A DNA stretch of 64,000 nucleotides from a bacterium (GTDB lineage: Bacteria; UBA6262; WVXT01): contig JBHIBS010000001.1 in NCBI GenBank assembly GCA_046759165.1, forward strand, positions 22,304 through 86,303, in the 5' to 3' direction. The notes beneath the pieces were generated by a model, which worked only from the letters and a program-made list of their open reading frames with translations, was not told the DNA's origin and did no database searches. The translations under genes and the position numbers were made by a program. How positions within the stretch are numbered: the first letter of the stretch is position 1; each line of letters opens with the position of its first letter. Shown here in pieces: positions 13,251 to 31,464 of this stretch.

Positions 13251-16085
13251 TCACAGATTCCTCACCACTTCTACACATCTTGCACAAAGCTGGGGATGCT
13301 CTCTGTTCCCCCCGACAGCGGGACTCCAGTTCCAGCAGCGCACGCACTTTTTTCCCGGGGCCCTTTTCACCACCATATATAGTCCGGGTATCTCTTCACC
13401 TTTCATCATGGCTTTTGATTTGTCCTTCCCTACCTCGGACGACACTAATGGTACTTCCTCGAAAACCTTCACTTCAGAAACAATGAAAATCTCCTTCCAA
13501 TTTCTCTCATAATTATGGAGGAGGGTGGTCAGCTCCTTTTCCTGGGTATAAAGGTCCACTTCTGCTTCAAGAGAACTCCCGATAATCTTCTCCTTTCGCG
13601 CAATCTCCAGTGCCTTCACAACACTTCTCCTAATGAGCAAAATCTTCTCCCACTTCTTTGCCAATTGTTCGTCCCAATACTTTTTCTCCACCCGAGGAAG
13701 ATTGGTCAAAAAGACACTCGGCTCCTTAATTTCTGGCATCATCTGCCACGCCTCTTCGGCAGTATGTGCCAGAATTGGTGCAGTGAGCTTAATCAAACTT
13801 ACTGCTATCTCATAAAGAACTGTCTGAGCGGACCTTCTGGGAAGAGAATTTCTGCCAAAAGTATAGAGCCTGTCCTTAAGCACATCCAGATAGAACGAGG
13901 AGAGCTCTCTGGTGCAGAAATTGTGGATAGCCGTATAAACCCGATGTAATTCGAAAGATTCGTAACCATCTACCACTTGGGAAATCAATTCCTGCAATCT
14001 ATGGAGCATCCACTGATCGATTTCTGACATATGTTCGTATCTTACCTTTTTTGAAAGATTGAAATCGTTCAAGTTTCCTAAAAGGAAACGGAAAGTGTTT
14101 CTGATCCGTCGATAAGCCTCGACGAGATGACCGAGAATCTCTGAGGAAATGCGCACATCTTCACGGTAGTCTTCCGAAGCAACCCATAGCCTTAAAATCT
14201 CAGCACCATACTTTTCGATAATTTCCTGAGGTGAAATTACATTACCTATCGATTTGGACATTTTTCTGCCTTCACCATCAACAACAAACCCATGAGTTAA
14301 AACACTCTTAAAGGGAGCCGTCTTTCCCAGGGCAACTGCAACAATTAACGAGGTCTGAAACCAACCTCTGTGCTGGTCTGAGCCCTCCAAGTATAAGTCT
14401 GCGGGCCAGGATAGGTTTTCTCGCTCTCTCAGAACAGCTTCATGACTAACTCCGGAATCGAACCAGACATCCAGAATATCTTTCTCTTTAATGAATTCCC
14501 TTTCTTTGCACCTGCGGCACTTTGTACCTCCTGGCAGAATTTCTTCTTCTTTTCTTATATACCAAGCATCGCTTCCCTCTCTCAGAATCAAATCCTGGAC
14601 AGCACCTATGCTCTCTTCAGACATCAGCGGTTCCCCACAATTTTTACAGTAGAAGATGGGAAGTGGAACTCCCCAATACCTTTGGCGGGAAAGACACCAA
14701 TCTGGTCTCCCTTCCACCATCGCCGAGATTCTATTTTCTCCAATTTTGGGAATCCACTTCACCTCTCTTATTGCTTCCAGCATCTTTTCCCTAAGCTTGT
14801 TCTTATGCACATCCAGAAACCACTGTTCTGTAGCCCGGAAAATAATCGGCTTCTTGCAGCGCCAACAATGGGGATAGGTGTGGACAATCTCTTCGGAGTG
14901 CAGAAGGTGAGAGGAATTCCTCAATTTTTCTATAATTAGCATGTTAGAAGAAAAAACTTCCACTCCTGAGAATTGTGGAACTTCCTCGGTAAACCTTCCT
15001 TTATCATCTACAGGAGCTAGAACCGGAAGCTCATATTTCAACCCAATCTGGTAATCTTCCTGTCCGTGGCCTGGAGCAATGTGAACTATCCCGGTCCCTT
15101 CTTCTATGGTCACGAAATTGGCACAGATGCCGACAGAATCCCTTCCCATAAAAGGATGAGAGCAGACAATTCCTTCGAGATCTTTACCTTTCCAAACCTT
15201 CAGAATATTATAATTTTCGATTCCAAATCTTTCCATCAGATTTGATGTTAATTCCTTAGCTACAATTATTACTTCTTCTTTTGAAGAAGGATGCGAAGGA
15301 GATAACTTTACCCATGCATATTCATATTCTGGGTGAAAAGCAAAAGCTACATTGGCGGGTAAAGTCCAGGGAGTTGTTGTCCAGATTACAACGGAAGTAG
15401 GAAGTATAAATTGACTCTCTTTGTCTTTTCCCAACTTCTTGACTGGGAATTTCGCATAGACAGAATGGGAAGTGTGATTGGAATACTCCACTTCGGCTTC
15501 GGCCAGAGCTGTCTGGCAATTTGCACACCAATAGACTGGCTTCTTTCCTCTATAAATATAACCTTGCGCAACAAGACGTTTGAATATCTCGATGATTTTA
15601 CCCTCGTAATCGTAAGACATTGTTAAATAGGGATTTTCCCAGTCACCAAAAATGCCCAATCGCTTGAACTCTTCTTTCTGAATGTGGGCAAACTCTTCCG
15701 CATAAGCCCGCGCTTTCCTCCGGAATTCAACCCTGTCTATCTCTTCTTTCCTAAGACCCAGGCTCTTTAACAGTTGGTATTCGATAGGCAGCCCATGGCA
15801 ATCCCATCCAGGAACGAAAGGAACACTGAACCCTTCCATCAATTTAAATTTAATGACTATATCCTTAAGAATCTTATTCAAGGCATGCCCCATATGGATG
15901 TTTCCATTAGCATAAGGTGGACCATCATGAAGGACATACCTGGGTCCATTCTTATTCTTTTCCTGGATAGCTTCGTACGATCTCATCTCTTCCCATCTTT
16001 TCTGTATCTGCAGTTCGCGTTTTGGCAAATCGGCTTTCATCTGAAACTGAGTAGTGGGAAGGTTTATTGTCTTATTGTATTCCAT
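13251..16085 (-). CDS. ileS: Isoleucyl-tRNA synthetase (bacterial type 1)
   Basis: LHDGPPYANG, HMGH, GWDCHGLPIE, KMSKS, C-terminal CxRCW...LCxRC zinc finger. Confidence 0.98.
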   Translation of the reverse strand: MEYNKTINLPTTQFQMKADLPKRELQIQKRWEEMRSYEAIQEKNKNGPRYVLHDGPPYANGNIHMGHALNKILKDIVIKFKLMEGFSVPFVPGWDCHGLPIEYQLLKSLGLRKEEIDRVEFRRKARAYAEEFAHIQKEEFKRLGIFGDWENPYLTMSYDYEGKIIEIFKRLVAQGYIYRGKKPVYWCANCQTALAEAEVEYSNHTSHSVYAKFPVKKLGKDKESQFILPTSVVIWTTTPWTLPANVAFAFHPEYEYAWVKLSPSHPSSKEEVIIVAKELTSNLMERFGIENYNILKVWKGKDLEGIVCSHPFMGRDSVGICANFVTIEEGTGIVHIAPGHGQEDYQIGLKYELPVLAPVDDKGRFTEEVPQFSGVEVFSSNMLIIEKLRNSSHLLHSEEIVHTYPHCWRCKKPIIFRATEQWFLDVHKNKLREKMLEAIREVKWIPKIGENRISAMVEGRPDWCLSRQRYWGVPLPIFYCKNCGEPLMSEESIGAVQDLILREGSDAWYIRKEEEILPGGTKCRRCKEREFIKEKDILDVWFDSGVSHEAVLRERENLSWPADLYLEGSDQHRGWFQTSLIVAVALGKTAPFKSVLTHGFVVDGEGRKMSKSIGNVISPQEIIEKYGAEILRLWVASEDYREDVRISSEILGHLVEAYRRIRNTFRFLLGNLNDFNLSKKVRYEHMSEIDQWMLHRLQELISQVVDGYESFELHRVYTAIHNFCTRELSSFYLDVLKDRLYTFGRNSLPRRSAQTVLYEIAVSLIKLTAPILAHTAEEAWQMMPEIKEPSVFLTNLPRVEKKYWDEQLAKKWEKILLIRRSVVKALEIARKEKIIGSSLEAEVDLYTQEKELTTLLHNYERNWKEIFIVSEVKVFEEVPLVSSEVGKDKSKAMMKGEEIPGLYMVVKRAPGKKCVRCWNWSPAVGGNREHPQLCARCVEVVRNL

Positions 16086-17133
16086 TTTTCAATCTTCTAG
16101 GGTGAAAAAACCTGACCATTTTCTTTCTATTGGGATGCCTGATAACACTTCTCTCAGTTATAATAGCACTCACTAACTCATGTGGTGTAAGGTCAAAAGC
16201 CGGGTTGAAGACAGCCATATTTTGGGGAGCAATTCTCCTTCCCTGTAATTCCAGAACTTCCTTGGGATCCCTCTCCTCAATCACGATATCGCCACCCTTA
16301 TGAGTCCTCATATCAACAGTGGTGGAAGGAGCCGCAACGTAGAAGGGAACATCGTGATACCTCGCTAAAACAGCTAAAGCATAGGTCCCGATCTTGTTAA
16401 CCACATCGCCATTTGCGGCAATTCGGTCGGCGCCCACAATGACACAACCGACAACGCCCTTCTGCATGAGATGCCCAGCCATATTATCGGTCACCAAAAC
16501 AGATGGGATCTTATCATGAACAAGCTCCCACGCGGTCAGACGGGCTCCCTGCAGTGCCGGACGTGTCTCATCCACAAAAACTTTCTTTATCCTGCCTTTG
16601 CTGTAAGCTGCTCTAATCACCCCCAGGGCTGTTCCATAACCTGCTGTAGCCAGTGAACCTGTATTGCAATGAGTAAGAATATTGGCCGGCTTATTAATTA
16701 ACTTCAGTCCATTTTTGCCAATTTGTTTGTTTAATCTAATGTCCTCTTTTAGCATATTAATGGCTTCCTTTTCAAGAGTATATTTGATCTCTTGTAAAGA
16801 TTTCTTACAGTTCTTTCTGGCTAAGCCAAAGAGCCTCTCAATTGCCCAGAAGAGATTTGCTCCCGTTGGTCGGGTGTGTAAGAATCGATTTGCTATGGCG
16901 TCTAACTTTTTGAAGAACTCATCTCTGCTTCTGGCCTTGATACTTCTTGCACCCAGAGCCAGTCCCATAGCAGAAGCAATGCCAATAGCAGGAGCGCCGC
17001 GGATCGACATCCTTTCAATACAACGGGCAACTTTCTGGTAGTTCTTACACTCAATTACTTCTTCTTTATGAGGGAGCTTAGTCTGATCTAAGATATAGAC
17101 TTTTCCTTCTTTCCACCAGATTGTCTTAACCAT
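16072..17133 (-). CDS. mtnA: S-methyl-5-thioribose-1-phosphate isomerase
   Basis: LDQTKLP, IRGAPAIG, THCNTGSLAT..YGTA, ETRP.LQG.RLT, GADRI..NGD..NKIG. Confidence 0.95.
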   Translation of the reverse strand: MVKTIWWKEGKVYILDQTKLPHKEEVIECKNYQKVARCIERMSIRGAPAIGIASAMGLALGARSIKARSRDEFFKKLDAIANRFLHTRPTGANLFWAIERLFGLARKNCKKSLQEIKYTLEKEAINMLKEDIRLNKQIGKNGLKLINKPANILTHCNTGSLATAGYGTALGVIRAAYSKGRIKKVFVDETRPALQGARLTAWELVHDKIPSVLVTDNMAGHLMQKGVVGCVIVGADRIAANGDVVNKIGTYALAVLARYHDVPFYVAAPSTTVDMRTHKGGDIVIEERDPKEVLELQGRRIAPQNMAVFNPAFDLTPHELVSAIITERSVIRHPNRKKMVRFFHPRRLKNGIQ

Positions 17134-17136
17134 TTT

Positions 17137-17406
17137 CTATTTTATTATGAAAGAACCTACCAGCCAAAAGAGTAGAACAAATATCACCAGAAGTGTGATG
17201 GAAAGGGTAGACTCTTCCTGAATCGGTATAAACTTCCGCGCCTGATTGAGGATGAGCTCCGAAAAGTCCTTAATAATCGGCCCACCCAAAACGGTGCTTA
17301 AATCTTTGCCTTGCCTGGTCAGAATGAACTTGGCTAAGACTACAAGGAACAGGATAATTAACAAACTGTTAATCAGGCAACCGAGGACATTTAGTAGAAA
17401 TTGCAT
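17137..17406 (-). CDS. Small membrane protein, probably divergent YggT family
   Basis: Two hydrophobic helices flanking ...L.QARKFIP; position after yggS-proC; ATG 17406 with GGAGG RBS. Confidence 0.55.
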   Translation of the reverse strand: MQFLLNVLGCLINSLLIILFLVVLAKFILTRQGKDLSTVLGGPIIKDFSELILNQARKFIPIQEESTLSITLLVIFVLLFWLVGSFIIK

Positions 17407-17421
17407 ATCCCCTCCTCTCAA

Positions 17422-18387
17422 TTAACCTGCGCTTAGCCCTTTTGACCTTCTAGCAGCCTCCTTCACGGCTGCAATCAAAATTTTCTGGAATCCTTCTTCC
17501 TCAAGATATTTCAACGCAGCTTCAGTTGTTCCGCCAGGTGATGTCACTTTTGCCCTTAAAACTTGAGGACTTTCCCCTATCTCCATAACCATTCTTGCTG
17601 CACCGAGGACCGTCTGACCAACCAGGTTTCTCGCATCCTCCTCCGACAAACCCATCTCCATTCCCGCCTCAATTAGGGATTCAATGATGTAGAATATATA
17701 CGCTGGACCGCTACCCGACAAGGCAGTTACTGCATCGAGCATCTCTTCAGGAACCTTAACCACAATTCCCACTCCACGCATCATCTGTTCTGCAATCGCC
17801 TCCTCCCCTTCACCTGCATATTTACCTGGGGAGACACCTGAGGCACCTGTCTTGACCAGAGCAGGAGTATTGGGCATCACTCTAACCACTGGAACTTCTC
17901 TGCCAAGAGTCTCCTCTATAAAGCCCGTAGTAATTCCAGCAGCGATGGAGATAATTACTTTATCTCTTGTCACGACATCCTTAATTTCAGAAAGAACCTT
18001 CCCGATTACCTGGGGCTTTACAGCCAAAACAATAACATCGCTCTTCTCCGCTGCTTCTCTGTTGTCCTTGGTAGTGGAGACTCCTTCCCTTTCACTGATA
18101 TGCTCAAGCCGCTTAGGTCTAATATCAGTAGCCAAAACTTTATCCCTACTAATGAGTCCGCTCCTCAGAACTCCGGAGATCAATGCGCTACCCATATTTC
18201 CACACCCAATGAAGGCTACCCTTTTCTCTCTCAATAAATCTCTTTTCTCCTCAGGAACCACACCGGATGAACTTTTCCTCCTTTCTCCTTTACGACGTTC
18301 AACAAAGGGAGGCCTTCCTCCGCCAGGACGGCGTCTTTCTCCCTTTCTCTTCTCTTCTCTCCGGAACTTTTGGCTATTTCGTTTCAT
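17422..18387 (-). CDS. proC: Pyrroline-5-carboxylate reductase with ~50-aa Arg-rich N-terminal extension
   Basis: FIGCGNMG, LAVKPQ, RVMPNTP, SGSGPAY, VTSPGGTT; ATG 18387 preceded by AAGGA. Confidence 0.95.
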   Translation of the reverse strand: MKRNSQKFRREEKRKGERRRPGGGRPPFVERRKGERRKSSSGVVPEEKRDLLREKRVAFIGCGNMGSALISGVLRSGLISRDKVLATDIRPKRLEHISEREGVSTTKDNREAAEKSDVIVLAVKPQVIGKVLSEIKDVVTRDKVIISIAAGITTGFIEETLGREVPVVRVMPNTPALVKTGASGVSPGKYAGEGEEAIAEQMMRGVGIVVKVPEEMLDAVTALSGSGPAYIFYIIESLIEAGMEMGLSEEDARNLVGQTVLGAARMVMEIGESPQVLRAKVTSPGGTTEAALKYLEEEGFQKILIAAVKEAARRSKGLSAG

Positions 18388-18409
18388 AACTTTCCTTCTC
18401 ACATTATTT

Positions 18410-19090
18410 TTATCGCCCAAAGATTGCCGTTCCTATCCGCACCATGTTTGAGCCTTCCTCAATAGCCACTTCAAAGTCATTACTCATACCCATCGAGAGG
18501 TATACCGTTTCCACATTCTTTATATTCTCAGCTCTTACTTCCTCCGTCAGCTCCCTCAGTTTTCTAAAGTAGGGTCTACAATCCTCCGGATTTTCATAAA
18601 GGGGTGCCATGGTCATCAGTCCTTCAACCTTTATGTTGGAAAGTCCACTAACTTCTTTCAGAAAAGTGATTACCTCTTCAGGCCTCAATCCATACTTCGA
18701 TTCTTCGCCCGATACATTCACTTCAATTAATATTTTCTGTATCTTCCCGACTTTTCTGGCCTGCTTGTCAATCTCTTTCGCCAATTTAGCGCTGTCCACG
18801 GAATGGATTAAATCAAAAATTTTGATGGCATCCTTTGCCTTGTTCCTCTGCAAGTGCCCTACCAAGTGCCAGATAACTCTATTGTCTACTTTTGCATATT
18901 TTTCTTTTGCTTCCTGAACTCGGCTCTCACCAATAATATTTGCTCCCGAGGCTATTGCCTCTTCAATCCTATCCACCTCTACTGTTTTGGTCACTGCCAC
19001 CAGAGTTATCTCCTGAGGATCTCGACCGACCAATTGCGACTTCACTCGGATCTTCTCACCAATTTTTTCTAAATTTTCCTTTATCGACAT
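18410..19090 (-). CDS. yggS: PLP homeostasis protein YggS
   Basis: [39 protein letters not shown]...VRIGTAIFG. Confidence 0.97.
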
Positions 19091-19317
19091 ATTTTATCTA
19101 TAATGTACTGCTCTCCAACGCTCCTTGGTTAATTCTGTAACCATTTTCAATTCCATTATGGTCGGCACTTTTGCCATTTGATTTTATTTTTCCTTTATTT
19201 CTTCATTTGAGTAGCAAATTCCAGAACCAAAAAACTCATCAAGATTCGATACTTTTCCTTTTAAACAACAGAAGAACTACATTGTAGAATTGGTCTTTAA
19301 TTTTTGAAAAAACCTGT

Positions 19318-19634
19318 TACCACAGCCGTTCTAGGGTCAAAAGACCTGCGGCCTATTGTTTGCCTCTCGGCAAAAAAAAGTTTTAGACGACTTATGCGTC
19401 TACCTTTAGTCGGGCGAAAGGGAAGTCTAAATCAAGAGTTAATGAAATCCTCGAAGAAACTGCTAGAGAATTTTCTAGAAGGAGAGAAGCTCCCCGGGAA
19501 CTCAAACCGGCTGTCTCTAGAGAGAAACTCGTTGGAATAGTACTTGGCAAATTCTTAATTCTTACTTTAACAGGGATCCGTGCTAAAACCCTTATCGATG
19601 CCCTTCTATCTGCTGAAGTTAAGAGGCTCTTGAT
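19318..19634 (-). pseudogene. Degenerate single-domain PilZ protein
   Basis: One frame reads (I)KSLLTSADRRASIRVLARIPVKV...ETAGLSSRGASLLLE..LAVSSRISLTLDL...LKVDA*VV*...KQ*AAGL. RxxxR and (D>G)xSxxG motifs present; ATC instead of ATG after AGGAG; stops at 19392, 19383, 19353. Confidence 0.72.
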
Positions 19635-19654
19635 TCTCTTCTCCTTTCCAGAAT

Positions 19655-19834
19655 TTAATGGTACTTGCTATTCGATTTTTGCTTCACCCAAGAATCTATT
19701 TCTGACTTGTTGTAACGCCACTGTTTCCCAATTTTCGAGGCAGGAATTTTACCCTGTCTGGTCATTTTGTAAACTGTAACCTTACTCAACCTAAGATAAT
19801 CTGCTACTTCTTTTATAGTCATTAATCTTTGCAT
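19655..19834 (-). CDS. Xis/BldC-like (HTH_17) small DNA-binding protein, 59 aa (not in ORF track)
   Basis: MQRLMTIKEVADYLRLSKVTVYKMTRQGKIPASKIGKQWRYNKSEIDSWVK; GGGGAG RBS. Confidence 0.9.
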   Translation of the reverse strand: MQRLMTIKEVADYLRLSKVTVYKMTRQGKIPASKIGKQWRYNKSEIDSWVKQKSNSKYH

Positions 19835-21920: not shown

Positions 21921-23024
21921 TTACCGGTACCCCTTCCTTCTCCGAATAAAAGTGGGCACTCGCAGGTTCTCCTTCAGATAGCCCGGCTCTCTCAGTGACT
22001 CCTTCTTGTATTCCCATAAATCCCCTGCCAACTCTTCTTGTCTGAGTTTCTCTCCGAGAGAAGTTCGAGGTGGAGGAAAACCAGTAGCAATTACAGTAAT
22101 TTTCACCTCATCTTTGAGGATCTCATCGAATGCTTGGCCAAAAAAGACATTTGCTGCAGAGGAAGAAGCATTGTGAATTAAGTCCATTGCCTCCTTAATT
22201 TCAAACATCGTAATATCTCTATTTCCGGTGATATTGACCAAAATACCTTTGGCGCCTGCAATAGAAACATCTTCTAACAAAGGGCAATTTATAGCTGCCT
22301 TAGCCGCCTTAATTGCTCTATCTTTCCCGCGTCCCCGTCCCATTCCCATTAACGCCTCTCCGGCACCAACCATAATCGTTTTCACATCAGCAAAATCAAC
22401 ATTAATCATTCCATGTGATGTAATAATCTCTGAGATACTCTGTACTGCCTGACGCAGAACATCGTCAGCCACTTTAAAGGCATCCAGAGCCGGGGTAGTT
22501 TCATCAATAATGGCAAACAGTCTCTGGTTCGGGATAACGATCAAAGTATCGACCTTTTTCTTCATTATTTTCAATCCTTCCTCAGCCTGCTTAAAGCGAA
22601 TGGGCCCTTCAAACATAAATGGCTTAGTAACCACTCCTACGGTCAGAGCCCCCAAATCTTTAGCTATCTCTGCGACAACTGGCGCGCCTCCTGTGCCGGT
22701 CCCCCCTCCCATACCCACGGTGATAAATACCATATCAGCACCTGCAAGGGTTTCCCTAATTGCATCCCGGTCTTCCTCGGCAGCCTGGCGACCTTTCTCA
22801 GGATCCCCTCCCACTCCCAAACCCTTGGTAAGATTGGCTCCCAATTGTAAGCGATATCCAGCCAGAGAATCACGAAGAGCTTGGGCATCGGTGTTTGCTG
22901 CAATAAACTCCACACCTTTTATCCCGGAGACAACCATGCGCTTGATTGCATTGCCTCCTCCGCCACCAATGCCTATAACTTTTATATTTGCAGTAAGGTC
23001 GACGTCCTGCTTGAACTTTAACAT
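21921..23024 (-). CDS. ftsZ: Cell division protein FtsZ
   Basis: [34 protein letters not shown]-terminal VPTFIRR. Confidence 0.99.
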
Positions 23025-30576: not shown

Positions 30577-31464
30577 CTATGTAGAAAAAGTCTTGGGTAT
30601 TTGCGATAGGTTCGATATTTTGTCCATGACCTCATCTGCCATTTTTTGCAATGTATTTTTACTGGTCTTTTTGCCGAAGTACTTATTTAGAAAAATCTGC
30701 TCACCTATGCGGACTTTACACCTGCGAGAAAGACGGGGAAAAGGCACATCTCTCGGGAATACATCAAATGTCCCTGTAATGCCCACAGGGATTATTGGGA
30801 CCCTTGCTACTATTCCAAGTTTTACAAATCCTAGTTTCCCTCTCTGAATTTTTCCATTTATAGATCTACTTCCTTCCGGGAATATTACTACCACTTTATT
30901 TTGCTGCAAAATCTTCACTACTTCTCTAAAATATTTTACTCCAGGTTCTTCTCTGTCCAAGTAAATCCTCTCGTTATATCTCATAAACCATCTTAAAATC
31001 GACACTCGATGTAATTCCCGTGCTGCCAAAAAATATAATCTTCTTCTTATTACAGCAGATATAATAAAGAAATCAAGATAACTAGCGTGATTTGCCACAA
31101 TGATAGCACTATCTAATTTCGGCACACTCTCTATACCTTCTACTTCCCGTATCCAAAAAAGATAAAGAATTGCCCTTACTATTGGCTTTGTTAACAGATA
31201 AAAGACTCTTACGAGTAGTGGAGTTCTACGGTCAAATGCCCTGCGTTCGGATTTTGATCTCCTGTCGAGGAAATCGATCTCTATTTTTTTGACCCTTCGT
31301 TCCTTACGTCTACGTTCCCTTTGTTTACGGCTGTTCATGTATACATTTTGCTTCTGATAAGGGTCTTCAATCAACCTATGTTTAATTTTATAACTTGCAA
31401 AATTACCCAGCATCTCGTCATCTTTAGTATACATTTTGCCAAGAATGTGCCAGATTTTGCCCAT
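30577..31464 (-). CDS. plsC: 1-acyl-glycerol-3-phosphate acyltransferase (PlsC family) with [D/E]RR-repeat N-terminal extension; start uncertain (31464 or 31338)
   Basis: NHASYLD, IFPEGSRS, PIIPVGI. Confidence 0.85.
   Translation of the reverse strand: MGKIWHILGKMYTKDDEMLGNFASYKIKHRLIEDPYQKQNVYMNSRKQRERRRKERRVKKIEIDFLDRRSKSERRAFDRRTPLLVRVFYLLTKPIVRAILYLFWIREVEGIESVPKLDSAIIVANHASYLDFFIISAVIRRRLYFLAARELHRVSILRWFMRYNERIYLDREEPGVKYFREVVKILQQNKVVVIFPEGSRSINGKIQRGKLGFVKLGIVARVPIIPVGITGTFDVFPRDVPFPRLSRRCKVRIGEQIFLNKYFGKKTSKNTLQKMADEVMDKISNLSQIPKTFST

Follow-up and report, generated by a model that had tools for sequence, protein, structure and literature searches.

An arginine-rich N-terminal tail on pyrroline-5-carboxylate reductase, a candidate ligand-binding element with the register of the Cle c-di-GMP peptide

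The 64,000-nucleotide stretch analysed here (positions 22,304 to 86,303 of contig JBHIBS010000001.1, GenBank assembly GCA_046759165.1; hereafter the window) contains a gene for pyrroline-5-carboxylate reductase (ProC) with a 55-residue N-terminal extension, the core of which reproduces the residue spacing of the Cle peptide, a linear motif that binds cyclic diguanosine monophosphate (c-di-GMP). The extension is best filed as an arginine-rich, disordered candidate ligand-binding tail with a Cle-like register and without matches to known families or structures. As the leading mechanism we propose, tentatively and with more doubt than confidence, that the tail would capture c-di-GMP directly, changing the activity, assembly or location of ProC. 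A coupling of proline synthesis to c-di-GMP through this tag had been suggested by an earlier reading of the window made without database searches (the sequence-only reading).

Results

ProC carries a 55-residue arginine-rich extension

The gene, the extension and the ribosome-binding site lie as follows.

17422..18387, minus strand: proC, pyrroline-5-carboxylate reductase, 321 amino acids, matched by PF03807 and PF14748
18223..18387, minus strand: N-terminal extension of ProC, residues 1-55, predicted disordered
18393..18397, minus strand: Shine-Dalgarno (SD) sequence AAGGA, 5 nt before the ATG at 18387

The open reading frame runs from an ATG at 18387-18385 to a stop codon at 17422-17424. 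Its product is a ProC by both of its domains, a Rossmann NADP-binding domain (PF03807, E = 2.2e-23, residues 56-151) and the P5CR dimerisation domain (PF14748, E = 4.9e-39, residues 214-317). This is the single ProC match in its own genome, which is 92% complete and also encodes proB and proA; the tailed ProC is therefore the housekeeping enzyme.

Position 1 of the PF03807 profile falls on residue 56, which leaves an extension of 55 residues. The sequence-only reading had quoted the extension peptide exactly and correctly placed a ribosome-binding site ahead of the ATG at 18387; its 'about 50' extra residues were real, although slightly too few. The extension contains 22 Arg and Lys against 9 Asp and Glu (net charge +13), and the duplicated RKGERR that had been pointed out is found at R14-R19 and R32-R37. 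It had also been called unusual for a ProC, and this is borne out by relatives outside the family, whose untagged ProC begins 5-10 residues before GxGNM. AlphaFold2, run with a 41-row alignment, gave a predicted local distance difference test score (pLDDT) below 50 over residues 1-45 and a confident ProC body, mostly above 90.

The tail is translated and under selection

For comparison we collected 53 copies of the tail (tags). Two of these (L036 and L050) repeat P0001 and P0002, with the reading begun at a codon further upstream, leaving 51 that are truly distinct. All 9 genomes of the family (f1) have the ATG in common; in them all indels are in frame and a purine-rich SD-like stretch precedes the ATG, weakly so in 1-2 of the 9. 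The eight other family genomes align to ProC residues 1-321, one of them to 6-321, and 25 of the 56 columns of the tail alignment are invariant across the nine genomes.

The substitution pattern is that of a coding sequence. The ratio of nonsynonymous to synonymous divergence (dN/dS, Nei-Gojobori) was 0.13 in the core (residues G16-K38), 0.32 in the head and 0.26 in the linker, compared with 0.15 in the enzyme body, at similar proportions of synonymous differences (pS 0.315 in the core, 0.362 in the body). Variable sites in 23 distinct DNA versions of the core were distributed 5/6/21 over codon positions 1/2/3, and none of the 53 tags contains a stop codon. Judged by these patterns, the tail is translated and under selection.

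An alternative reading is that the tail has no function, that the true start lies at residue 43 and that the upstream part is a leftover of a purine-rich leader, translated or untranslated. The codon in question is:

18259..18261, minus strand: GTG in frame with the ATG (V43), perhaps an ancestral or an additional start, at a distance of 15 nt from the AGGAGG upstream (18277-18282)

A start codon stands at residue 43 in 47 of the 53 tags (ATG in 45, GTG in 2), behind an AGGAGG in the window's genome, and a composition of Arg, Lys, Glu and Gly is what purine-rich leader DNA encodes. However, the spacing of 15 nt between the SD sequence and this start speaks against it, and residues 1-42 show dN/dS of 0.13-0.32 besides the codon-position bias, the in-frame indels and the lack of stop codons. 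Since the remaining six tags have Thr, Ile or Ala at residue 43, this residue is neither an obligatory nor a sole start. A downstream start as the only start was rejected on these grounds, and we consider a non-functional tail very improbable. A second, short ProC isoform from residue 43 may exist, and the leader composition may well explain the origin of the tail and permit this isoform; the Arg/Lys/Glu/Gly-rich peptide may have arisen through translation of a purine-rich leader.

An mRNA element in place of a peptide was also rejected. RNAalifold, applied to 17 orthologous leaders with their 5' coding regions, gave a weak fold; its energy across 272 columns was -11.8 kcal/mol and its covariation term -0.8, and double changes occurred in only 2 of 27 pairs. 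Because the consensus RNA fold is weak, the substitutions are of the coding type and core and body have similar synonymous divergence, the constraint acts on the peptide and not on an RNA element.

The tail is confined to ProC in one family

In a word-index search scored on residues 1-58, all 43 matches were ProC of 320-324 amino acids, apart from one truncated copy of 234. Likewise, all 21 loci recovered from metagenomes with a tail profile encode ProC. A full HMMER profile search over 1.84 billion representatives returned two matches, both of them tail fragments: one is a frameshifted ProC start, and the other (P0045, 54 amino acids, on a 1,175-bp contig) has DRRRAGASRVPFVERRKGERRKS after a different N-terminus. 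P0045, which comes from another organism, carries its DRRR...PFVERRKGERRK core behind an unrelated 25-residue N-terminus, and this is the sole hint of the core outside the family.

Among 12 genomes of the phylum, the tail occurs in 9 of 9 members of the family and in 0 of 3 others. Of these three, G011 has a ProC that starts MADTLGVIGCGNMG, in G009, from the same order, the contig ends within proC, at residue 61, and no ProC match was found in G010. A tail search of the 9 family and 12 phylum genomes returned ProC only. At E up to 10 the tail profile had no Pfam match, and the ESM Atlas gave no usable match to the tail. From these sequence comparisons, the tail is a gain of ProC in one bacterial family.

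The core has the spacing of the Cle peptide

The sequence-only reading had likened the extension to the arginine-rich regions of Cle proteins. The residues concerned lie in the conserved core:

18274..18342, minus strand: conserved core G16-K38, GERRRPGGGRPPFVERRKGERRK, free of indels in 53 of 53 tags
18328..18339, minus strand: E17-R18-R19-R20, counterpart of Cle D154-R155-R156-R157, by column counts over 53 tags
18283..18297, minus strand: R31-R32-K33-G34-E35, counterpart of Cle (R/K)168-R169-x-x-D172, 11 residues after R19

In the report on CleD and CSP (PMC7382256), the motif based on nuclear magnetic resonance is DRR-x11-(R/K)RxxD. The free CSP1 peptide is described there as unfolded, and single-residue deletions in the loop of CSP4 weaken binding. 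In the alanine scan of CSP, R169A abolished binding, Y163A and G165A weakened it 25-fold and 43-fold, and D154A and D172A each weakened it about 10-fold (PMC7382256). A second report defines the Cle arginine-rich region by a tandem [Y/F]xGP[D/E][R/K]R, which allows either acid at that position, and records such regions next to a few domains other than CheY, for example an adenylosuccinate synthetase domain (PMC5677366).

The likeness proved closer than had been claimed. The ProC core, E17RR-x11-R31R32xxE35, has the exact spacing of the CSP motif, with Glu for Asp in the acid-Arg-Arg unit as in the second unit and with the 11-residue spacer preserved by the indel-free core. In the first unit, E17 is Glu in 52 tags and Asp in one, R18 and R20 are each kept in 52 of 53 and R19 in all; in the second, R31 is kept in 43, R32 in all 53, and E35 is Glu in 42 and Lys in 11. 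Of the five residues that bond the ligand, four have counterparts kept in 52-53 of 53 tags. When the motif was relaxed to either acid, it matched once in the 739,054 residues of the genome's open frames of at least 100 amino acids, and this match was the ProC tail; the expectation was about 0.23 per spacing, with 9 matches seen over 17 spacings. Composition-preserving shuffles of the tail contained the motif in 1,096 of 200,000 cases (0.55%).

Conservation extends over most of the core. Over the 53 tags, G16, R19, G22, G24, R25, P26, P27, F28, V29, E30, R32 and R37 are invariant, and E17, R18, R20, G23, R36 and K38 have one exception each; P21, R31, G34 and E35 vary. Upstream of the core, W8 is present in 44 tags.

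Like the Cle peptide, the ProC tail is a short, terminal, disordered Arg-rich stretch beside a folded domain, with acid-Arg-Arg, 11 residues and a candidate basic-Arg-x-x-acid unit in the same register. In both, one aromatic residue lies within the spacer and a second some 9-10 residues upstream, W8 in the tail. Whereas the Cle peptide is C-terminal to a receiver domain, the tail lies at the N-terminus of a metabolic enzyme; it also has Glu for Asp and no [Y/F]xGP, and carries Lys in place of the last acid in a fifth of the tags. Since the organism belongs to a distant uncultured phylum and homology is not detectable, the tail would be convergent with Cle.

The comparison with PilZ domains that had also been drawn did not hold. 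PilZ domains combine an RxxxR loop with (D/N)xSxxG on a six-stranded barrel. The tail does contain an RRxxxR (R31-R32-K-G-E-R36) like that of the PilZ switch loop, but it is predicted to be disordered, has neither the barrel nor (D/N)xSxxG and gave no Pfam PilZ match at E up to 10. By itself, RxxxR is almost uninformative.

In composition, disorder and restriction to one lineage the tail also resembles viral arginine-rich RNA-binding motifs, of which those of phage N and BIV Tat are the comparators; these differ from an indel-free, invariant 23-residue core with invariant acids on a biosynthetic enzyme. The tail could be an RNA- or nucleic-acid-binding arm that folds on a specific RNA and brings ProC to ribosomes, mRNA or the nucleoid. 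Its net charge of +13 in 55 residues, its Gly/Pro turns and its predicted disorder agree with such an arm, and the strict positional conservation would fit a specific target over a generic one. Yet there is no evident RNA partner, conserved structure is lacking in the proC leader and 5' coding region, and an RNA arm would leave the link to the neighbouring PilZ gene (see below) unexplained. ProC is, moreover, not known to act on RNA. We regard this arm as rather unlikely.

A PilZ receptor and a PlsC-like protein carry related arginine-rich stretches

Three further features of the window bear on the tail.

18410..19090, minus strand: yggS, encoding a PLP-binding protein (PLP, pyridoxal phosphate), directly upstream of proC (PF01168, E = 3.8e-26)
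19279..19667, minus strand: wreck of a PilZ receptor gene, in stop-to-stop frames; the PilZ-tail search matches 19279-19404, with one TAA (E = 0.0012)
31219..31338, minus strand: a PilZ-tail homologue, the Arg-rich tag at the N-terminus of a PlsC-like acyltransferase (gene 30577-31464)

The yggS stop (18412-18410) and the proC ATG are separated by a gap of 22 nt. The PilZ wreck lies 0.9-1.3 kb upstream of proC, where the sequence-only reading had seen a PilZ remnant; the tagged PlsC-like gene that it had counted as a neighbour as well is, however, 13 kb away. Relatives have an intact PilZ protein of 190-200 amino acids, encoded upstream of yggS-proC (PF07238, E = 3e-10 and 2.9e-11), with the canonical RRxxxR and DxSxxG (e.g. 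L007:191-778, plus strand). Its C-terminal tail is built from [DE]RR repeats (six units in 40 residues), with a hydrophobic end helix after them. A search with this tail picked up the PilZ gene, its tail intact, in each of the 8 other family genomes and in none of the 3 genomes from outside the family; in 7 of the 8 the gene is intact and 0.7-2.1 kb upstream on the same contig. In L050, the nearest relative, the PilZ gene is apparently also wrecked, and the core of the ProC tail is intact.

Of 20 distinct PilZ tails, 12 contain [DE]RR-x6-[YF]-x4-[RK]Rxx[DEN], the Cle register including its Tyr, and 5 contain the strict acid version; chance should account for some of this agreement, given six [DE]RR units in 40 residues. 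By its register, the PilZ tail is a candidate second c-di-GMP site on the PilZ protein.

The same genome search matched the PlsC-like tag (E = 1.1e-6). By BLASTP, tag and PilZ tail are 44% identical over 52 amino acids (E = 2e-6), and the alignment reaches into the hydrophobic helix. Tag and first hydrophobic helix together (31159-31338, minus strand) form a module that has apparently moved between C- and N-terminus. The tag is conserved in 5 of 5 orthologues. In the other 11 phylum genomes the PlsC-like gene has two matches (E up to 1e-20), one in 1 of the 8 family members and one in G011. Both are untagged, and the tagged gene, absent from most family genomes, does not characterise the family.

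A unit ERR[KR]xERR is common to the ProC tail, the PilZ tail and the PlsC-like tag, and some PilZ tails contain the exact IERRKGERR. All three stretches are Arg-rich, probably disordered and of the same lineage, and the PilZ gene shares the locus of proC. Homology links the PilZ tail with the PlsC-like tag, and a hydrophobic helix comes after each; the ProC tail has no such helix. In an hhalign comparison of the ProC and PilZ tails, the probability was 2% and only ERRKGERR was aligned, to ERRRSERR. One portable homologous tag was rejected on this value and on the searches that returned ProC only. What stands of the 'portable tag on housekeeping enzymes' is therefore the shared unit on three proteins; the ProC tail keeps to ProC, and the homology is between the PlsC-like tag and the PilZ tail.

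A wider reading takes the [DE]RR stretch for a convergent, Cle-like and self-sufficient c-di-GMP module of this uncultured phylum, with one version on ProC and a related version on the PilZ receptor and the PlsC-like acyltransferase. Through it c-di-GMP would directly influence both proline synthesis and the acylation of lipids, and do so without a classical receptor domain. We think this wider reading fairly unlikely.

In the family, the ProC tail and an insertion of helix-turn-helix (HTH), PilZ and yggS genes occur together, and both are absent from G011. In this member of the sister family the locus (L019, 1232-3786) reads pilT-pgeF-proC-DUF167 and has no HTH, PilZ, yggS or ProC tail; it is at this place that the window's family acquired both the HTH-PilZ-yggS block and the tail. 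This co-occurrence is one evolutionary event and not a statistic. It would nevertheless fit a tail that serves as a docking motif for a protein partner, chiefly a membrane-anchored PilZ receptor, in which case the c-di-GMP link would be indirect, or a hub protein to which the PilZ tail and the PlsC-like tag would bind as well. In appearance the invariant GRPPFVE resembles short linear motifs used for docking, and the ERR[KR]xERR unit on three proteins is consistent with a common hub. But the PilZ gene is wrecked here and apparently in L050 and the tail core is intact all the same; the co-occurrence rests on a single event, and the interaction is putative. Docking of this kind is, in our judgement, unlikely.

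The tail might instead be an electrostatic tether that enriches ProC at a surface by holding it either to polyphosphate or to the membrane's anionic inner face. Its strong positive charge would suit this role, and the PilZ tail and PlsC-like tag, which abut a hydrophobic helix, are juxtamembrane. In ProC, however, no hydrophobic segment follows the tail, and nine acids, three of them invariant or nearly so, within a tail whose core is free of indels exceed the needs of pure electrostatics. A tether is decidedly unlikely.

The surrounding gene order is ftsA-ftsZ-pilT-pgeF-HTH-(PilZ)-yggS-proC-yggT-mtnA-ileS, with the minus-strand stretches 16072-17133, 17137-17421 and 13251-16085 alongside proC. 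From ftsA to ileS it is like the Gram-positive ylm division cluster, with proC at the place of sepF; SepF itself had no match in the genome, which is 92% complete. FtsZ has a conserved C-terminal peptide, P-x-F/Y-hydrophobic-basic at its extreme C-terminus, that binds receptors of the FtsA/SepF type. The FtsZ peptide of the window (21924-21965, minus strand) and the ProC core segment RPPFVERRKG (18283-18312, minus strand), 3.6 kb apart, have 6 of 10 residues in common, and the pattern P.F[ILV].R[RK][RK] has only two matches in the genome, the ProC tail and the organism's own FtsZ C-terminus. A mimic of the FtsZ peptide that docks on FtsA is a conceivable role for the tail. The Phe, however, is not kept in the FtsZ of relatives, the residue before the Pro is Arg, and the ProC motif is internal and N-terminal.

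Discussion

Direct capture of c-di-GMP as a proposed mechanism

For the ligand, the fold on binding and the effect on the enzyme, we infer the following. The tail would fold around an intercalated c-di-GMP dimer, like the CleD peptide CSP. Its first arm would be E17/R18/R19 and its second R31/R32/E35, with the invariant PGGGRPPFV turn between them and F28 as the stacking aromatic; the clamp formed on binding would thus consist of ERRR, the PGGG turn and RPPFVERR. Since the core sits about 18 residues ahead of the NADPH-binding GCGNMG loop, folding induced by the ligand would be expected to affect ProC, altering its activity, assembly or location and tying proline synthesis to the level of c-di-GMP. 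The invariant acids in an Arg-rich stretch, the pseudo-repeat and the PilZ neighbourhood favour, by inference, a guanine-nucleotide ligand over plain electrostatics. In titles and abstract openings, the literature showed no link between pyrroline-5-carboxylate reductase and c-di-GMP and no description of an N-terminal extension of this kind on ProC. On arginine-rich motifs and c-di-GMP, the two Cle reports alone proved relevant.

The search for turnover genes that the sequence-only reading had called for was made, and c-di-GMP metabolism is indeed present: the genome contains five GGDEF, five HD_5/HD-GYP-type, one PilZ and no EAL matches. These genes permit direct binding but do not support it, because they are equally present in untailed relatives.

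Several observations weigh against direct capture. GGDEF occurs in 12 of 12 phylum genomes, including the relatives without the tail, and in the window's own genome the tail is kept beside a dead PilZ gene. Within the motif, both acids are Glu apart from the single Asp at position 17, and the acid of the second unit, replaced by Lys in 11 tags, is Asp in none of the 53. R31 is His, Leu or Cys in 10 tags, and a metagenome variant (L044) has EMRH in place of ERRR. Counterparts of Cle Tyr163 and Gly165 are missing, the tail having Pro26 and Phe28 there; it has no [Y/F]xGP unit and no GP, and only F-V-E-R-R resembles one. The invariant GGGRPPFV and R36-R37-K38 are unexplained by the Cle model. The relaxation to either acid, on which the genome count depends, was chosen after the sequence had been seen. 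Finally, the tail profile had no match among all chains in the PDB at E up to 10, and by this search homology to known arginine-rich regions is not detectable.

Implications for second-messenger signalling and proline metabolism

Known c-di-GMP receptors are mostly folded domains. To our knowledge the Cle peptide is the only self-contained linear motif described to bind c-di-GMP, and it is almost confined to alphaproteobacterial CheY-like proteins. If the ProC tail does bind c-di-GMP, it would be a second version that evolved independently, on a core enzyme of amino-acid biosynthesis, and such motifs would be a general and easily gained wiring of metabolism to the second messenger, and their register would provide a search pattern for further hidden effectors. 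In this family, binding would mean a direct c-di-GMP link to proline, an osmoprotectant. Even without binding, the tail would still illustrate neatly how a housekeeping enzyme can newly gain a disordered extension that is under strong selection.

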